From the IMG/VR virus record IMGVR_UViG_3300045988_105766: a stretch of 46,812 bases of DNA; one strand, 5' to 3'. The DNA comes from a virus. This document shows positions 1 to 46,812 of this stretch, in pieces (the first letter of the stretch is position 1; each line of letters opens with the position of its first letter). Below the pieces are notes generated by a model. That model was given only the letters and a program-made list of their open reading frames with translations, searched no databases and was not told the origin of the DNA. Made by a program: the position numbers and the translations under genes.

Positions 1-58
1 AGAGCGGACGGACCCGAATTAGAAGTATTGTTGAACGCCGACCCACGGATAGGCAACC
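1..58 (-). repeat. DGR template repeat (TR), part lying after the circular junction; nt 1-55 duplicate 46758-46812
   Basis: Exact 55-nt identity of the two window ends. Aligns to VR1 655-712 with differences only at plus-strand T positions. Homology ends after ACC at 56-58. Confidence 0.9.
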
Positions 59-91
59 ACCGTAACTTTGTGATTATTTCCCTATGTATTT

Positions 92-502
92 TTATTTCTG
101 TCTTTCCCTGCTGTTGACCCATTCCGAATAACCGCCTATCATTCGACCGATTTCGTCTACCTTTCGCATCCATACTTCCCAAGTGTGGAAATTCAAACAA
201 GGCTTTTGGTTTGGGTATAGGTTCGGGTCTTTTGCAAGTCTTAGCAGATTTCTTAATACATCAACTTCAATATCCAAATCCTGCAATGTGGTTTTCTTGT
301 GGTACTTCTTTTCAAGTCGCACCGCCATTTCCAACATTGTATACATTGTCTTTCTTATATCGCCTGCAAGTACATACCTCTCCGTTTTCGGAAAGTCCTT
401 TAATTGAGGGTTGCCGTACAATATCATTTCATAAATCTTTTCCTTGATATGAAAAATATCATTGCCGTTATGTTTCTTTTCTTCCTGTTGTATCTCTTCC
501 AC
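92..502 (-). CDS. avd: DGR accessory variability determinant (Avd), small helical-bundle protein
   Basis: 136 aa between VR1 and TR. Has Avd-like motifs (FPKTERYVLAGDIRK, C-terminal EIGRMIGGY). Sits in the canonical target-VR-avd-TR-RT position. Confidence 0.85.
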   Translation of the reverse strand: MEEIQQEEKKHNGNDIFHIKEKIYEMILYGNPQLKDFPKTERYVLAGDIRKTMYTMLEMAVRLEKKYHKKTTLQDLDIEVDVLRNLLRLAKDPNLYPNQKPCLNFHTWEVWMRKVDEIGRMIGGYSEWVNSRERQK

Positions 503-538: not shown

Positions 539-560
539 AGGGCGTGCTATCGCACGCCCT
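539..560 (-). promoter_or_regulatory. GC-rich hairpin downstream of VR1 (DGR target-recognition cruciform candidate)
   Basis: GGGCGTGC-TATC-GCACGCCC: 8-9 bp stem with a 4-nt loop (GATA on the coding strand), about 40 nt 3' of the VR1 end. A paralogous hairpin follows VR2; none follows TR. Confidence 0.7.
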
Positions 561-587
561 ATCAGTTTTTCAGTGTTCAGTTTACAG

Positions 588-1631
588 TTACTCAACAAAA
601 GCGGAGCGGAAACCAATGCTGACGTACGAGTGGGAACGAGGGTTACTCAAGTGGAGAGCGGACGGACCCGAATAAGAAGTACTGTCGAACGCCGACCCAC
701 GGAAAGGCAACCTTTCGCCGTGGCATCTCATCCAAATCTGGTCGTTGCCATATCCCGTTACACCGCTGTCCGGGTATAATCCAAGTGCTATAAGCAACTT
801 CGGAATAGTTACCCCGGAAGCTGCCCCAAGGCTCTTAAATGCAATATTTCTGTAAGTATCTCCACTTGTAGGGAACTCAACCTTTGTATTTACTCTGATT
901 CCTGCGGATGCACTTGCCTGGTCTAACTTTAATGTGCCTGCTGTTCCCGGCTCTACTAAAGTTCCGTCCGGCTTAATCGCTTTCCAAAGTGTGCTTTCCG
1001 CCGACATATCGCAATCAAGTTTCATAGAGTTACCATAAGGGATAATCTGAATTTCTCCGTCCATAAGGCGTAATCCACCGGTCCACTCCCAAAGGTTGCC
1101 GTTAATGTCCGCAATGCCCGACATATCGTGATTGTGATACCATGTAGGCTGTCCGCTTCCTGTAAGCGTTCTCTGTGATTCTCCCTGTGGCATTGTTCCC
1201 CTCTCGTAAGGGTGGTAATAATCCTTGCCGTAGTTTGTGTTTCCGTGTGGTACAGTACCCATTTTCTGTGATAACAGGTTAAGGTACGCAAATACACCTG
1301 TCTGATTTAAGTGCCAACCTGCACCTTTCTTTTTGCAAGCTGCTACAGACTGGTCAAAGTTGATATAGTTTCTAGGCAGGTATCCGCCTAAAGAATATGC
1401 ACGGTCATTTTCTACAATATTGAGGAACTTAGACACATAAATTACGCTCTTTTCCTCTCCGTCCATAATCCAAAACGGTAATGTTTCATCTGTTCCGCCT
1501 GTGATTACATCACTATACTTTGCCTTTGGCACTGCTACCATGATGCTAGGCATCCCGGTATCATCAAAAATTACCTTGTTGTTTGCACCAAACTGTGCTA
1601 CTGCACCCTGTAAATCGTCAAAGTTTGCCAT
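588..1631 (-). CDS. DGR variable protein 1 (Mtd-like, C-type lectin / FGE-sulfatase-modifying-factor fold), probable receptor-binding tail fibre protein
   Basis: 347 aa with GWHL, GNLWEWTGG and C-terminal FRGSAF...GFRSAF motifs. VR1 occupies the last 37 codons. It is the last gene of the tail-fibre module. Confidence 0.9.
   Translation of the reverse strand: MANFDDLQGAVAQFGANNKVIFDDTGMPSIMVAVPKAKYSDVITGGTDETLPFWIMDGEEKSVIYVSKFLNIVENDRAYSLGGYLPRNYINFDQSVAACKKKGAGWHLNQTGVFAYLNLLSQKMGTVPHGNTNYGKDYYHPYERGTMPQGESQRTLTGSGQPTWYHNHDMSGIADINGNLWEWTGGLRLMDGEIQIIPYGNSMKLDCDMSAESTLWKAIKPDGTLVEPGTAGTLKLDQASASAGIRVNTKVEFPTSGDTYRNIAFKSLGAASGVTIPKLLIALGLYPDSGVTGYGNDQIWMRCHGERLPFRGSAFDSTSYSGPSALHLSNPRSHSYVSIGFRSAFVE
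600..712 (-). repeat. DGR variable repeat 1 (VR1)
   Basis: 113-nt alignment to TR. The 10 mismatches (619, 622, 626, 632, 646, 653, 674, 682, 686, 704) all fall at plus-strand T of TR, i.e. A on the coding strand. Confidence 0.95.
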
Positions 1632-7694: not shown

Positions 7695-7911
7695 TTACCG
7701 TTACCCCCTGTTTCCACGGTGGCAGGGATTCCGATACCGTTAATTCAATTTCCGGCAAGGTCAATACAACCCCTGCTGGAAAAATATAGGTATCTTTATA
7801 CTCAATATTCGCCTTAATAAGAGTATCCATATACATTTCATTGCCATAGGCTTTATAAGCTACAATATCCCAAGTATCCCCGGATACCGTTGTATAAGTG
7901 TTATTAAGCAT
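7687..7911 (-). CDS. LysM-like tail protein X (XkdP-like)
   Basis: 74 aa with YTTVSGDTWDIVAYKAYG, directly after the tape measure gene. Confidence 0.7.
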   Translation of the reverse strand: MLNNTYTTVSGDTWDIVAYKAYGNEMYMDTLIKANIEYKDTYIFPAGVVLTLPEIELTVSESLPPWKQGVTVSE

Positions 7912-10900
7912 ATACTACCCTGTCCTCCTGTTCTTTTTGTTCTTTCAGAATTGCAACAATGATTGCTCGTAGCTTCTCTAAAAATGCTTCGTCATACTGT
8001 TCTAACTGTTGCTTAATGTTATTTGCTTCGCCGTTTCCGTTCACTACAACGCTTGGCGAATTTTGAACATTTATAACGATTGTGCCGGCCCCACTCATTC
8101 TTGCGGATACATTATCCGCCGTCTGTGCCTGTGAGATATTGTTAAATATCTGTCCTGTCTGTGCTGCCGTAAATACTTTTCTGTTGGCAGCGTTTGTAAT
8201 CAACTCCGGTCCATTCTCTCCGGCTATAAATGTACCCGGTGTCCTGTCTGTACCTTTTGCAAATCCCGGAATCAAAGGTATGTTAATTCCTTTTCCGCCA
8301 AGTCCGGGAACCCAATCCGGCACTTTCAATTTATTAAGTCCACCAATCACGGTATTAACCGCTGATACAACGGCTCGTAATGGTGCTTTGATAATTTCGC
8401 CAAGACCTCCAACCGCTCCCGAAAATATAGACTTAATTCCGTTCCAAGCCTGCGACCAATTACCTGTAAATACGCCTGTCACAAAATCTATAATTCCGCT
8501 TAACACGGTCATAAGATTTTGTATTATGCCCTGCACTGAACCAATCACAGATTGAACCACGGATAAGATTACAGGCATTACAGCTTGCACCACCTGTAAA
8601 ATTCCCTGTACGATTGGTGCTACTATGTTCCAAATTGTTGTTAAGGCAGTTTGAATTACCGGAAGCAATACCGATAAAACATTAGTAACTACAGGCAAAA
8701 TTGCTTGAATCGCTGCCGATATAGCAGGCAGTACGGTACTTGTTATAAAATTGAACAATTCCGATATAATCGGTAATACATAGGTCTGTAAAAACGAGAT
8801 AAGTTCCGATATAATCGGCATCAATCCGGCTATAAAATCGGCAATAATTGGAATGACCGCACCGACAAAATCAACAATACTTTGAATGATTGACATTATC
8901 GTAGGTGCTGCTGCCTGTATGAAACTCACAATACCCGGCACAACATCATTTATAATTACCTGTAATACCTGTTCCGCAACAGGAACTACATAGGTTGTCA
9001 CAAATGCTATTACATCTGATACCGCCGTTTTTACCTTTCCAAGGATATTTACAAGCGTATCAAATACCTGTACGCCTTTATCCCCGAAAATCTCTTGTAT
9101 CTTGTTTCTCGCTTCTCCGATATTGCTATCAGAGAAAATATTTTTAATGGTATCTCCAACATTCGTAATAACCGCTACAATCTTGTCAAAGATTGCCAAC
9201 GCTTCACTTCCGAATGTCTTTTCTATAAATGCTCTGATTTCCTGTAAGTGATTTTTTACCAACTGAATAACAGTAATAATTGTTGTGATTACTCCAACAA
9301 TCGGTAAAATCTTACCTACCACTCCACCAAGCGGACCAAATACGGAACTTGCCAAATTCCCCAACGGTCCAAGCATGGTTTTTATTGCATTTCCTACAGG
9401 TGCTATAAACTTCGTTATTTTCCCGAATCCTGCACCTATGAGATTCCCAACCTTTCCTAAAGGCGAATTTGCTATAACTGTTCCAACTCCCGACAGGATA
9501 CCGCCAAGTTTACCGCCCATTCGTGTAAACGGACTTAAAAACAGGTTAAGTAGTTTTGAACCCGCTCCCATTACAGTACCGCCGATTTTCCCACCGATAC
9601 CGCTAAATACACTACCAATCTTTGTAAACAAGGTGCTGTTGCTTAATACTCCGCCTAATGCACTGCTTACGCCCCCGGCTGCGTTCTTTACGCTTGTGAA
9701 ATATCCAAGAATACCGCTACCGATATTCTTAAAATTCAAAAATCCGCCTGTAAGGCTTTGTAGGTACTTATTCATTCCGATTCCCTTGATTATTTCAAAG
9801 GCTTTTTGAACATTGAGTATTCCGCCTTTTACTTCAAGGAAACCTAGCTTTGCTGCAAGTCCTCCGACTTTTAACCCCGCTAATGCAACCGCAACTTTGG
9901 CAATGGTTTTTGTTGCCTGCGGATTCTCTCTTACAAAATTTGTTACTGCGTTTACTATTTCTGTAAACCTCTTCACACCCTCTGTAAGGGTCGGCAATAA
10001 CAACTCTCCAAGTTCCACCTGTAAAGCATCAAATGCAGATTGTGCCAATGTGATACTTCCGTTAAGGTTATCCAACTTGGTTTCTGCCATTTGTTTAGCT
10101 GCACCGTCACAGTTATATACCGCATCTGTAAGTTTATTAAAATCGGCTTCTGATGCGTTTACGATAGCAAGCATACCCGCAAAACTTTCTTTTCCGAAAA
10201 TCGTTGTTGCTGCTGCCACCTGTTCCGCTTCGGACAATCCGCCCAAACTGCTTCGGAGGTTCTTTACTACATCCCCGAAACTCTTCATAGAGCCGTCTGC
10301 ATTTGTAAGGCTTATGCCGTATTTCTCCATTGCTGCCGCTTGTGCATCTGTCGGCTTCGCCATATTGGCTAATGCTGTCTTTAAACTTGTACCTGCGACC
10401 TCTGCCTTAATACTTGCATTTGCCATAAGTCCAATACCTAAAGACATATCCTCTACGCTATACCCTAATGCTCCGGCTACAGGTGCGACCTTTTGGAATG
10501 TTGACCCCATCATACTTACATTGGTGTTTGCATTGCTTGATGCCTGTGCCAATACGTCTGAAAAATGCCCGGCATCTGATGCACTCAACCCAAAAGCCGT
10601 TAAGGCATCCGTTACAATATCGGATACACCTGCCAAATCTTCCCCGGAAGCTGCTGCAAGGTTCATAATACCCTCGATACCGCCTAACATATCCTCGGTT
10701 TTCCAACCTGCCATAGCCATATATTCCATAGCCTGTCCGGCTTCTGTTGCGGTAAACTTTGTTGATGCTCCCATTTCTTTAGCTTTGTTTGAAAGTTTGG
10801 CGATTTCCTCAGTTGTTGCTCCCGATATTGCCTTTACTCCCGACATCTGCTCTTGAAATTCGGCTGCCTTTTTAACCGGTCCGACATATATCGCCGTTCC

Positions 10901-44974: not shown

Positions 44975-45286
44975 CTATGTTTCCTGTCCGTGTGCCTTTT
45001 GATTGATATGTTTTTCAATCTTTCCTATGGCTTCCGTGACCGGTCCGTTACATCCCTGTTCTTTAAGTCCTTTCAGACACGCCAATACCGCATAAGTGAG
45101 TAAGCATAATTCATCTTCCATTGCCTTTATGTCCTCTTTCTCCTGCTTCTTTAAATCCTCAATATCGGTTGTCTGCTTTTCCTGTGCCTGAAACCATTTG
45201 ATAATCTTGTATGCAACCGCACCAATGGCAGTTAATGCCCCTAATACGCTTGCAATAGTTATAATTGCTGCTGAATCAATATACAT
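44975..45286 (-). CDS. small membrane protein with a coiled-coil tail
   Basis: Start set at MYIDSAAIITIASVLGAL (ATG 45286). The track start at 45331 would overlap the RT gene by 56 nt. Confidence 0.45.
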   Translation of the reverse strand: MYIDSAAIITIASVLGALTAIGAVAYKIIKWFQAQEKQTTDIEDLKKQEKEDIKAMEDELCLLTYAVLACLKGLKEQGCNGPVTEAIGKIEKHINQKAHGQET

Positions 45287-46490
45287 TGTGTGTAATTTCC
45301 TTTCCTTGCAGTTTGCAATATGGCGTAGCAAATCCGCAAAAATAACTTTCGGTATAGTTCGGGCAGTTATTGCAATTTCCTGTACATCTACTTACCTCTT
45401 CTTTTTTCTCTACCATACCGTTTTCCTTAAACAGGGTGTTAAGGCTCTGCCTAAGTCCGTAACTGTTAAAATGTGACAGGATACCACGATATGAAGCTAC
45501 CGAACGGTCTAACCTGTCTTTTCTTTCTTCTCCTGCTTTTACCTTTGCAATCTGATTTTTAAGATTACGTTTGATTTTTACCGCCGTTTTCTTCTTTAAT
45601 CTGCGGTGCGTAGACCATATTCTAAAGCCTACAAAATCAACGCCCATACTACACGGTCTGATAGTCGTTTTATTATTCAAATCTAACCTTAATTCGTCTG
45701 ATAAGAACGCCCTTAACAACTCTTTGACCTCTGCCAAATACTTTTTATCGTGGTGGAGTATGATAATATCGTCCATATATCGGATGTAGTAATGCAATCC
45801 CAACTCATGTTTTGCGTATTGGTCTACCTCATTAAGGTAAATGTTTGCAAACATCTGTGAGGTAAGGTTGCCTATCGGCATCCCCTTGTTGCTCAATCTG
45901 TCCGATACTGCCACTTCGTCCGGCTCTTTTCCGGGCGGTAATCCAAAATTCATAGATTCGCAATTTATAATCTTTTCTAACAGGTTAAGTAATCGTTGGT
46001 CTTTAATCCTGCGTGCTAAAATCTTTAATAAAATATCGTGGTCTACCCTGTAGAAATACTTTGATATATCCATTTTCAGATAATAGTACCGTTCCGGCTT
46101 CCTTTCAGTCTGCCTTAACCAATACTGTAACCTGTCGGCTGCCTTATGTGTTCCCTTGCCCTTGCGACAGGCGTAGGAATCAAAGATAAATGTCTTTTCG
46201 TACAACGGAAATAACTGCCTGTAAATCGCCCATTGTACTATCCTGTCCTTAAATGGCAAGGACATAATGAGCCTTTTCTTCGGCTCGTAAACATAAAAGG
46301 TGTGATACTTTCCTACCTCGTATGTTTCATAAATTAAGTGATTCTGAATATTTATTAACTGCTCTTCGTAGTTGCGGTTGAAAATCAATACATCATCCCT
46401 GTACCTCTTTCCTTTTCTCGCTTCCTCCCAAGCCTTATGTAAATTCTCAAAATCATAAATCTTTTCGTATATATTCTTTATGCTTTGCAT
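45276..46490 (-). CDS. DGR reverse transcriptase
   Basis: 404 aa with the GMPIGNLTSQMFANIYL motif (a DGR hallmark), YMDD and FVGF. Lies immediately 3' of TR. Confidence 0.95.
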   Translation of the reverse strand: MQSIKNIYEKIYDFENLHKAWEEARKGKRYRDDVLIFNRNYEEQLINIQNHLIYETYEVGKYHTFYVYEPKKRLIMSLPFKDRIVQWAIYRQLFPLYEKTFIFDSYACRKGKGTHKAADRLQYWLRQTERKPERYYYLKMDISKYFYRVDHDILLKILARRIKDQRLLNLLEKIINCESMNFGLPPGKEPDEVAVSDRLSNKGMPIGNLTSQMFANIYLNEVDQYAKHELGLHYYIRYMDDIIILHHDKKYLAEVKELLRAFLSDELRLDLNNKTTIRPCSMGVDFVGFRIWSTHRRLKKKTAVKIKRNLKNQIAKVKAGEERKDRLDRSVASYRGILSHFNSYGLRQSLNTLFKENGMVEKKEEVSRCTGNCNNCPNYTESYFCGFATPYCKLQGKEITHNVY

Positions 46491-46702
46491 TGCATACCTC
46501 TTGTAAATTTGTGCCGTACAAACCTAATCAGTTTTTAACCCTTTCGGACGTGACAAATATATTTCTTTTCGGCTTACGCTTACTAACTGTCTTTACAGCA
46601 ATTCAATCTTTTTCCTGTCTACAGGAACGGAAAATAACCCCTTTAACCCTGTTTGTACTGTCCTTGCGGTCGTAACCGTAAGGCTTCTTGACATAGGGGC
46701 AG
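46491..46702 (-). ncRNA. TR-RT spacer, probably part of the DGR template/primer RNA
   Basis: A 212-nt non-coding segment between TR and the RT start. No credible ORF. Confidence 0.45.
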
Positions 46703-46812
46703 AGCGGAGCGGAAACCAATGTTGTCGTTCGAGTTGGAACGAGGGTTATTCAAGTTGAGAGCGGACGGACCCGAATTAGAAGTATTGTTGAACGCCGACC
46801 CACGGATAGGCA
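46703..46812 (-). repeat. DGR template repeat (TR), continuing at 56-58 across the circular junction
   Basis: 113 nt in total. Contains 22 coding-strand adenines, 18 of them in nine AAC/AAT codons. It is the only copy retaining A at all VR-variable positions. Confidence 0.95.

Follow-up and report, generated by a model that had tools for sequence, protein, structure and literature searches.

A BPP-1-type diversity-generating retroelement with two predicted C-type-lectin targets in a phage of gut Lachnospiraceae

Results

A DGR spanning the ends of a circular contig

The IMG/VR virus record IMGVR_UViG_3300045988_105766, a stretch of 46,812 nucleotides that we refer to as the window, carries a diversity-generating retroelement (DGR) that is canonical and of the Bordetella phage BPP-1 type in every testable respect. 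The element comprises a reverse transcriptase (RT), an accessory variability determinant (Avd), a template repeat (TR) and two target genes that each end in a variable region (VR1 and VR2). We are highly confident that it is a complete DGR of a Lachnospiraceae phage, and that it is functional or was so until very recently. An earlier, sequence-only reading of this DNA had placed the element in a known class and not in a new one, and we agree.

That reading set out a minus-strand order of target gene with VR1, hairpin, avd, TR, a 212-nt spacer and RT, matching the mtd-VR-avd-TR-brt layout of BPP-1. We recovered the same order of genes and repeats at the same positions, with one exception. The TR had been correctly located, but as 58-1 continuing into 46812-46703, which counts a 55-nt overlap twice. 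The window ends in an exact 55-nt terminal direct repeat (1-55 = 46758-46812), an overlap left by circular assembly. The genome is in truth 46757 nt long, and the contig break falls within the TR. Thus, the TR is a single 113-nt repeat (58..56 + 46812..46703, or equivalently 58..1 + 46757..46703). The coordinates of all features are collected in Table 1.

Differences between the TR and both VRs fall on adenines

A BLAST search of the TR against the window returned exactly two further copies, VR1 and VR2, each at the 3′ end of an open reading frame (ORF), which bears out the proposal of two targets. TR and VR1 differ by 10 mismatches in 113 nt, and TR and VR2 by 15 mismatches in 110 nt; every one of them (10/10 and 15/15) lies at a TR adenine. 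The chance of all 25/25 mismatches falling on TR adenines is ~3e-18, from (22/113)^10 x (22/110)^15. In the target frame the TR reads LPIRGSAFNNTSNSGPSALNLNNPRSNSNDNIGFRSA. Its 22 adenines are all at codon position 1 or 2 and are distributed over nine AAY codons, the same nine AAC/AAT codons counted previously, together with ATC, ACT, GAC and ATT. From this codon count ~15^9 x 4^4, or ~1e13, protein variants would be possible for each target without any stop codon. The TR itself is non-coding and lies beside the RT gene, 212 nt upstream of it, and the similarity between TR and VR ends directly after CGCT.

Activity was assessed by proxy, through comparison of related contigs drawn from IMG/VR and GTDB. 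In 15 close relatives, VR1 differs from the TR of its own contig at 9-20 sites, nearly all of them adenines, and the substitutions vary between contigs. The TR retains every adenine in 18/18 close relatives. When the window was compared with nine close relatives, 45-77% of sites differed in the 22 adenine-templated columns of VR1, whilst the rest of the 2-kb cassette differed by 1-7% per nt and the TR at 0-2 sites. Between contigs whose flanking DNA is 93-99% identical, the VR sequences are unrelated at the adenine columns. Moreover, non-adenine polymorphisms of the TR (T38C, T101C and a GTC block) recur in the VR of the same contig, the trace that repeated copying of the TR into the VR should leave. 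VR2 in 13 related contigs departs from the TR almost only at adenine columns and is different in every contig, and VR1, TR and VR2 co-occur on one related contig (L087/L016). The expectation that VR variation would be restricted to adenine-templated positions, with a stable TR, therefore held among related contigs by this proxy. Because the adenine columns are hypervariable among relatives and the TR keeps its adenines, the element appears to be active, or to have been so recently.

On a further related contig (L089, 10836-10946) VR2 runs out of register with the TR beyond ~position 74, a pattern suggestive of a 1-nt indel (frameshift) within this VR.

The reverse transcriptase

The best solved relative of the RT in a search against the PDB is the Bordetella phage RT (bRT, 8ub7; E 3.1e-50, 175 bits), which is ahead by ~100 bits of the best group II intron RT in that search (E 7.1e-21, 78 bits). 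Pfam RVT_1 matches at 1.1e-26 and phrog_1423 at 1.3e-147. DGR RTs have the signature [I/V/L]GxxxSQ instead of QGxxxSP (PMC7826257). The IGNLTSQ and YMDD motifs reported in the sequence-only reading were both found in the translation of the 404-aa ORF; the signature is of the IGxxxSQ type, not QGxxxSP, and YxDD is present as YMDD. In the PDB-search alignment, R73 and I206 of this RT align with R74 and I181 of bRT, which have been shown to promote adenine mutagenesis (PMC7826257).

Models for other RT classes scored below their family cut-offs on this protein. The NCBIfam group II maturase model TIGR04416 gave 141.9 bits (cut-off 300), the NCBIfam retron St85 model 45.5 (cut-off 235) and the NCBIfam models for defence-associated RTs (DRTs) 67.4 for Drt3a (cut-off 200) and 48.8 for Drt2 (cut-off 390). 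PADLOC returned generic RT similarity only (<=163 bits), and an Rfam scan of the window found no group II intron RNA and no retron RNA. Set against group II and retron RTs, bRT is closest by both search scores and motif. By signature, YxDD motif and closest solved structure the RT appears to belong to the DGR clade.

The C-terminus of the RT carries a Cys-rich tail. It has no Pfam match and is missing, through a clean in-frame 31-codon deletion, from relatives that are 84-96% identical (contigs L006-L009 and L011-L013); we therefore rejected it as a core part of the RT. RTs at ~57% identity have a longer conserved tail (ERKCYxCxxF...FCGYxACxC...GSLDVDQxERHPD). The tail may be a zinc-binding add-on. 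Separately, in the related contig IMGVR_UViG_3300045988_128916 (L016/L087) the TR is identical to that of the window and the RT frame is broken after 124 codons, owing to an error of assembly or to inactivation of this copy.

Avd and the two target proteins

The avd ORF (502..92) agrees with the 136-aa protein with a C-terminal EIGRMIGGY that had been proposed. It matches NCBIfam DivGenRetAVD at 94.2 bits (equivalog cut-off 80), Pfam bAvd at 1.7e-24 and phrog_3206 ('Avd protein of DGR') at 3e-42, profile matches that identify its product as an accessory variability determinant.

Pfam and NCBIfam scans gave no match for target 1, whose identity was resolved by a PDB sequence search: residues 9-346, almost end to end, match 5VF4 (5vf4_A) with an E of 2.5e-55. 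Target 1 also matches phrog_2889 at 8e-129. Target 2 is a paralogue of target 1 (40% identity) and matches the same structure at E 1.8e-40 and Pfam FGE-sulfatase at 2.4e-7. 5VF4 is TaqVP, the C-type-lectin-fold variable protein of a Thermus aquaticus DGR, whose VR is C-terminal (residues 341-374 of 385). Both targets are full-length or near full-length homologues of TaqVP, and the VR is C-terminal in all three; to judge from these matches, both would be TaqVP-like C-type-lectin-fold variable proteins. TaqVP is a chromosomal bacterial protein, whereas the targets here are phage-encoded, one of them in the tail module. Target 1, at the end of that module, is most likely the receptor-binding protein. 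Roux et al. 2021 recognise 'secondary' DGR targets.

A conserved structured RNA between TR and RT

The length and position of the 212-nt spacer stand as previously given; what had been overlooked is that the spacer contains a conserved structured RNA. Rfam RF02921 (RT-14) matches 46704..46554 on the minus strand with 51.0 bits against a gathering score of 48.1, over its full model length (positions 1-144/144), and adjoins the RT gene as the family is defined. The family was found at the same position in 6/12 relatives tested. RT-1 to RT-19 were defined solely by proximity to RT genes (Weinberg et al. 2017). RT-10 alone was linked to a DGR, being tied to the BPP-1 spacer, and other RT motifs were speculated to serve other DGRs; RT-14 was described without an assigned function (Weinberg et al. 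2017). In the present DGR, RT-14 is shown to be the RNA of the spacer between TR and RT.

The structure was tested on an alignment of 30 diverse relatives with shuffled and slid-partner controls. Across the whole proposed structure 85.9% of cells are paired versus 67% in shuffles, double-change cells number 200 versus 67.5 in shuffles, and the covariation score is 0.524 versus <=0.148 with slid partners. RNAalifold on a plain MAFFT alignment recovered partial spacer structure only, with the variable hairpins and the 3′ domain misaligned; the duplex between spacer and upstream sequence and the closing helix were found by direct complement searches.

Among the individual helices, the long-range duplex between 83..74 and 46637..46628 is paired in 97% of cells and has compensatory changes in 6/10 pairs. 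The UACG stem-loop directly after the TR shows compensatory changes in 9/9 pairs among relatives. It resembles the Avd-binding stem-loop of BPP-1 and fits the 9-bp stems with tetraloops that Handa et al. describe just downstream of the TR. At the predicted primer strand the CUCC:GGGG pairs are invariant and the adjacent CCC:GGG pairs are compensatory in 3/3 (RNAalifold and relatives). The closing helix of the terminal domain ends 21 nt ahead of the RT start codon and keeps 7/7 pairs in most of the 30 relatives, with the covariants TGCCGTG/CACGGCG, TGCTGCA/TGCAGCA and TGCCGAG/CTCGGCG. Conserved structure thus reaches past either end of the RT-14 model, to the duplex with 83..74 on one side and to the closing helix near the RT start on the other.

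Covarying helices flank the TR and, by analogy with BPP-1, would support priming in cis. In the cryo-electron microscopy structure of the BPP-1 bRT-Avd-RNA complex the order of elements is the Avd-binding stem-loop, the TR:Sp (TR:spacer) template:primer duplex, the avd:Sp 'cPRT Stop' duplex, then a short stem-loop with A-minor adenosines, the Thumb Ring and the bRT-binding stem. The RNA described here has this series in common, from Avd-type stem-loop to terminal long stem. The pairing of the TR 3′ end with GGGG would be the analogue of the template:primer duplex, and the duplex 83..74 : 46637..46628 that of 'cPRT Stop'. The short stem-loop, adenosines and Thumb Ring are paralleled by 46601..46625, and the terminal domain (46512..46600) is the positional analogue of the bRT-binding stem. 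Because the covarying helices share the element order of BPP-1, we infer BPP-1-like cis-priming and upstream termination.

Hairpins and CTG arrays at the target sites

Each VR is followed by a hairpin. Compensatory changes in relatives maintain the stems (GGGTGTGC/GCACACCC and GGGTGCGC/GCGCACCC), and the GATA and GGTA loops fit the GRNA consensus of Guo et al. 2011. Their distance of 39-42 nt exceeds the range of 4-34 bp from the VR given in that study. Both VRs have the GC-rich 3′ end and the GRNA-loop inverted repeat of DGR target sites. A plain intrinsic terminator was considered for the VR1 hairpin and rejected: there is no T-run on the coding (minus) strand, and the terminator found by the scan is on the opposite strand only. 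The equivalent hairpin at VR2 and the conserved loop also counter it.

Between VR and hairpin lies an array of four CTG repeats. At VR1 the first unit overlaps the stop codon and the remainder is non-coding. The VR2 array lies inside coding sequence, which places the constraint on the nucleic acid. Occurrences of ACTGN3ACTGN3ACTG (one mismatch allowed) in the window, 0.07 of which would be expected, are confined to the two VR flanks, and the TR flank is without a CTG array. In nearly all relatives examined, the VR is followed by an N4-5CTG array with spacing 7-7-8 that abuts the hairpin, a conservation that extends across Bacillota DGRs. The array-bearing relatives range in RT identity from ~100% down to ~42% (contigs L020-L080, L096-L157 and L169), among them Faecalibacterium, Thermincola, Desulfosporosinus and Caloramator. 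The bases between the CTGs are variable, with ATCTG, AGCTG or CACTG in some subclades. Pairing of the array with the spacer, at ACAGTTAGT or at the CAG stretch before GGGG, was rejected, as these spacer sequences are unconserved in relatives that keep the array. The AACTG array was not found in the open-access DGR literature searched, where the target elements are GC14/initiation of mutagenic homing (IMH) and the stem-loop only. We suggest, speculatively and with modest confidence, that the CTG array is part of target recognition.

Genomic setting

Nearly all genes of the window are on the minus strand. PHROG matches include the large terminase, major head protein, tail sheath, tape measure and baseplate proteins; the genes upstream of target 1 are those for baseplate, tape measure and sheath. 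Downstream of the RT lie two small membrane proteins and then an amidase endolysin. Target 2 sits 7.5 kb past the RT, between the lysogeny/insertion sequence (IS) region and the early genes. An IS30-type transposase ORF (38553-39590, minus strand, 345 aa; phrog_4646, E 5e-141) lies ~0.8 kb upstream of target gene 2. The phage is temperate and contractile-tailed, and of gut Lachnospiraceae. Its closest genomic relatives are Lachnospiraceae metagenome-assembled genomes (MAGs), with the RT of a Lachnobacterium MAG at 98% identity, and RT relatives in IMG/VR number 231. Among GenBank phages, a blastn search with the RT-TR region gave no close relative, the only match being Clostridium phage Saumur at 67.6% across half the query.

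Table 1. Features of the DGR and its surroundings in the window (positions are those of the 46,812-nt stretch).
Feature	Position	Strand	Description
Target gene 1	588..1631	-	ORF, 347 aa; last gene of the tail/baseplate module
VR1	600..712	-	113 nt, 3′ end of target 1
VR1 array	563..590	-	TAACTG TAAACTG AACACTG AAAAACTG; four repeats, CTG spacing 7-7-8, in the gap from VR1 to hairpin
VR1 hairpin	539..560	-	AGGGCGTGC-GATA-GCACGCCCT; hairpin/cruciform, 9-bp GC-rich stem, 39 nt after VR1
avd	92..502	-	ORF, 136 aa, GTG start, C-terminal ...EIGRMIGGY...
Long-range duplex, 5′ strand	74..83	-	AGGGAAATAA; upstream of TR, pairs with 46637..46628
TR 5′ half at window start	1..58	-	bases 1-55 are a copy of 46758-46812
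TR, 110 of its 113 nt	46703..46812	-	repeat match to VR1/VR2
Spacer (Sp)	46491..46702	-	212 nt between TR and RT
UACG stem-loop	46662..46683	-	CCUUACGGU-UACG-ACCGCAAGG; 9 bp, one A/C mismatch, UNCG tetraloop, directly after TR
Predicted primer strand	46638..46649	-	GGGUUAAAGGGG; pairs with TR 3′ CUCC (46709..46706) and CCC just past TR
Long-range duplex, 3′ strand	46628..46637	-	UUAUUUUCCG; in spacer, pairs with 83..74
Short stem-loop	46601..46625	-	CCUGU-AG-ACAGG, then AAAAAG, then AUUGAAU; AUUGAAU single-stranded, nearly invariant
Terminal domain	46512..46600	-	closed by UGCUGUA (46600..46594) / UACGGCA (46518..46512)
RT	45276..46490	-	ORF, 404 aa
IGNLTSQ motif	45875..45855	-	in RT; preceded by P (PIGNLTSQ)
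YMDD motif	45779..45768	-	RT catalytic motif
Cys-rich RT C-terminal tail	45315..45386	-	RT residues ~369-392; CTGNCNNC...C...C; pattern CX3CX2CX8CX6C
Target gene 2	36747..37727	-	ORF, 326 aa
VR2	36783..36892	-	110 nt, 3′ end of target 2
VR2 array	36744..36771	-	AAACGG AAAACTG ATTACTG AATAACTG; four repeats before VR2 hairpin
VR2 hairpin	36721..36740	-	AGGGGTGC-GGTA-GCACCCCT; 8-bp stem, 42 nt from VR2

Discussion

The element has in common with BPP-1 its order of genes and repeats, Avd, the IGxLTSQ and YMDD motifs of the RT, adenine-only differences between TR and VR, and a GC hairpin with a GRNA loop after the VR. It differs in several respects. The target of BPP-1 is Mtd, whereas here it is TaqVP-like, and there are two targets, one of them far beyond the RT. 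The BPP-1 spacer measures 140 nt and belongs to RT-10, compared with 212 nt and RT-14 here. In BPP-1 the TR and VR share a near-identical 21-bp IMH tail, in contrast to the abrupt end of similarity after CGCT, and the hairpin is within 24 bp after the VR, in contrast to 39-42 nt with four phased CTG repeats between. Further differences from BPP-1 are the optional Cys-rich RT tail and the Bacillota host. With the possible exception of the CTG array, all of this lies within the variability known for DGRs.

The closest cultured relative is Clostridium phage Saumur (ON453901), whose RT gene is 67.6% identical at the nucleotide level. Saumur is an induced prophage of Enterocloster clostridioformis YL32, and thus a different phage from a different host. 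It has the same synteny of target, Avd, TR, RT, two small membrane proteins and endolysin. The TR and VR of Saumur differ by 14 mismatches, 14/14 at adenines, and it has the same CTG array with a GGTA-loop hairpin. In the Saumur record the RT and Avd only are annotated; the TR and spacer RNA (7847-8191) are called as two small hypothetical protein genes and the VR is unannotated. The paper describing Saumur makes no mention of a DGR.

By analogy with BPP-1, the cycle may run as follows. RNA from just upstream of the TR to the RT start would fold so that 83..74 pairs with 46637..46628 and the GC-rich 3′ end of the TR pairs with the GGGG tract of the spacer, and the three stem-loop domains would bind the Avd pentamer and the RT. 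The RT-Avd complex would then prime cDNA in cis from the spacer nucleotide beside the GGGG tract (predicted around 46637-46635) and copy the TR, misincorporating opposite the 22 adenines, until synthesis stops at the upstream duplex, at a point predicted just 3′ of 74. The cDNA would replace VR1 or VR2, with the GC-rich 3′ homology common to TR and VRs (TTCCGCTCCGCT) and a downstream element, putatively the four CTG repeats and the GRNA-loop hairpin, as guides. Each round could yield ~1e13 variants per target on the ligand-binding face of the C-type lectin.

Several points weigh against this account. Where synthesis is primed, where it stops and how protein meets RNA are all carried over from BPP-1, and the spacer there is of another family, RT-10. 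The helix between the TR 3′ end and GGGG never varies, so covariation is uninformative on it. Any function of target 2 or of the CTG array is at most putative. Lastly, activity is judged from contig-to-contig differences.

This last point is also what lends some weight to a decayed or inactive DGR, whose repeats and genes would be remnants and whose VR differences would have become fixed in the distant past. Inactivation does occur in the lineage, to judge from the related contig with a frameshifted RT (L016), and the RT tail is indel-polymorphic. However, the RT, Avd and both target ORFs of the window are intact, none of the 22 TR adenines has been lost and compensatory changes preserve the RNA helices. 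Moreover, a relic would hardly be expected to leave near-identical contigs with unrelated VR adenine columns, or non-adenine TR substitutions copied into the VRs, and we regard long-standing inactivity as very improbable. Even less credible, to the point of being negligible, is that the RT belongs to a group II intron, a retron or a DRT and that the likeness of TR and VR is that of an ordinary duplicated gene fragment. The RT does show generic similarity to the group II, Drt3a, retron St85 and PADLOC RT models, but these scores are far below the cut-offs, bRT is the best solved relative, the motif is that of DGR RTs and Rfam detects neither intron nor retron RNA. Nor can a plain duplication put 25/25 differences on the adenines of a non-coding copy. 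A complete DGR that functions, or functioned until very recently, is therefore the explanation that we prefer.

We put forward one further idea, which we consider tentative and rather doubtful: that the CTG arrays are an undescribed third component of the target site across the DGRs of Bacillota phages and prophages, acting as a multivalent docking site (e.g. for pentameric Avd). If this is true, the array would mark genes able to receive cDNA and would explain the recruitment of target 2, a remote paralogue.

Tens of thousands of DGRs are known, and gut phages are especially rich in them. The least understood step is how the cDNA finds and replaces its target. The DGR described here provides a fully annotated example from an uncultured Lachnospiraceae phage, with two diversified proteins of predicted C-type-lectin fold and evidence of activity at the population level. 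Its covarying RNA helices support the generality of the BPP-1 cis-priming architecture, and an orphan Rfam family, RT-14, gains a putative function. The CTG array, which is specific to the flanks of targets, conserved over great distances and shared by a cultured relative, Saumur (in the OMM12 strain YL32), is a testable candidate for a homing determinant.

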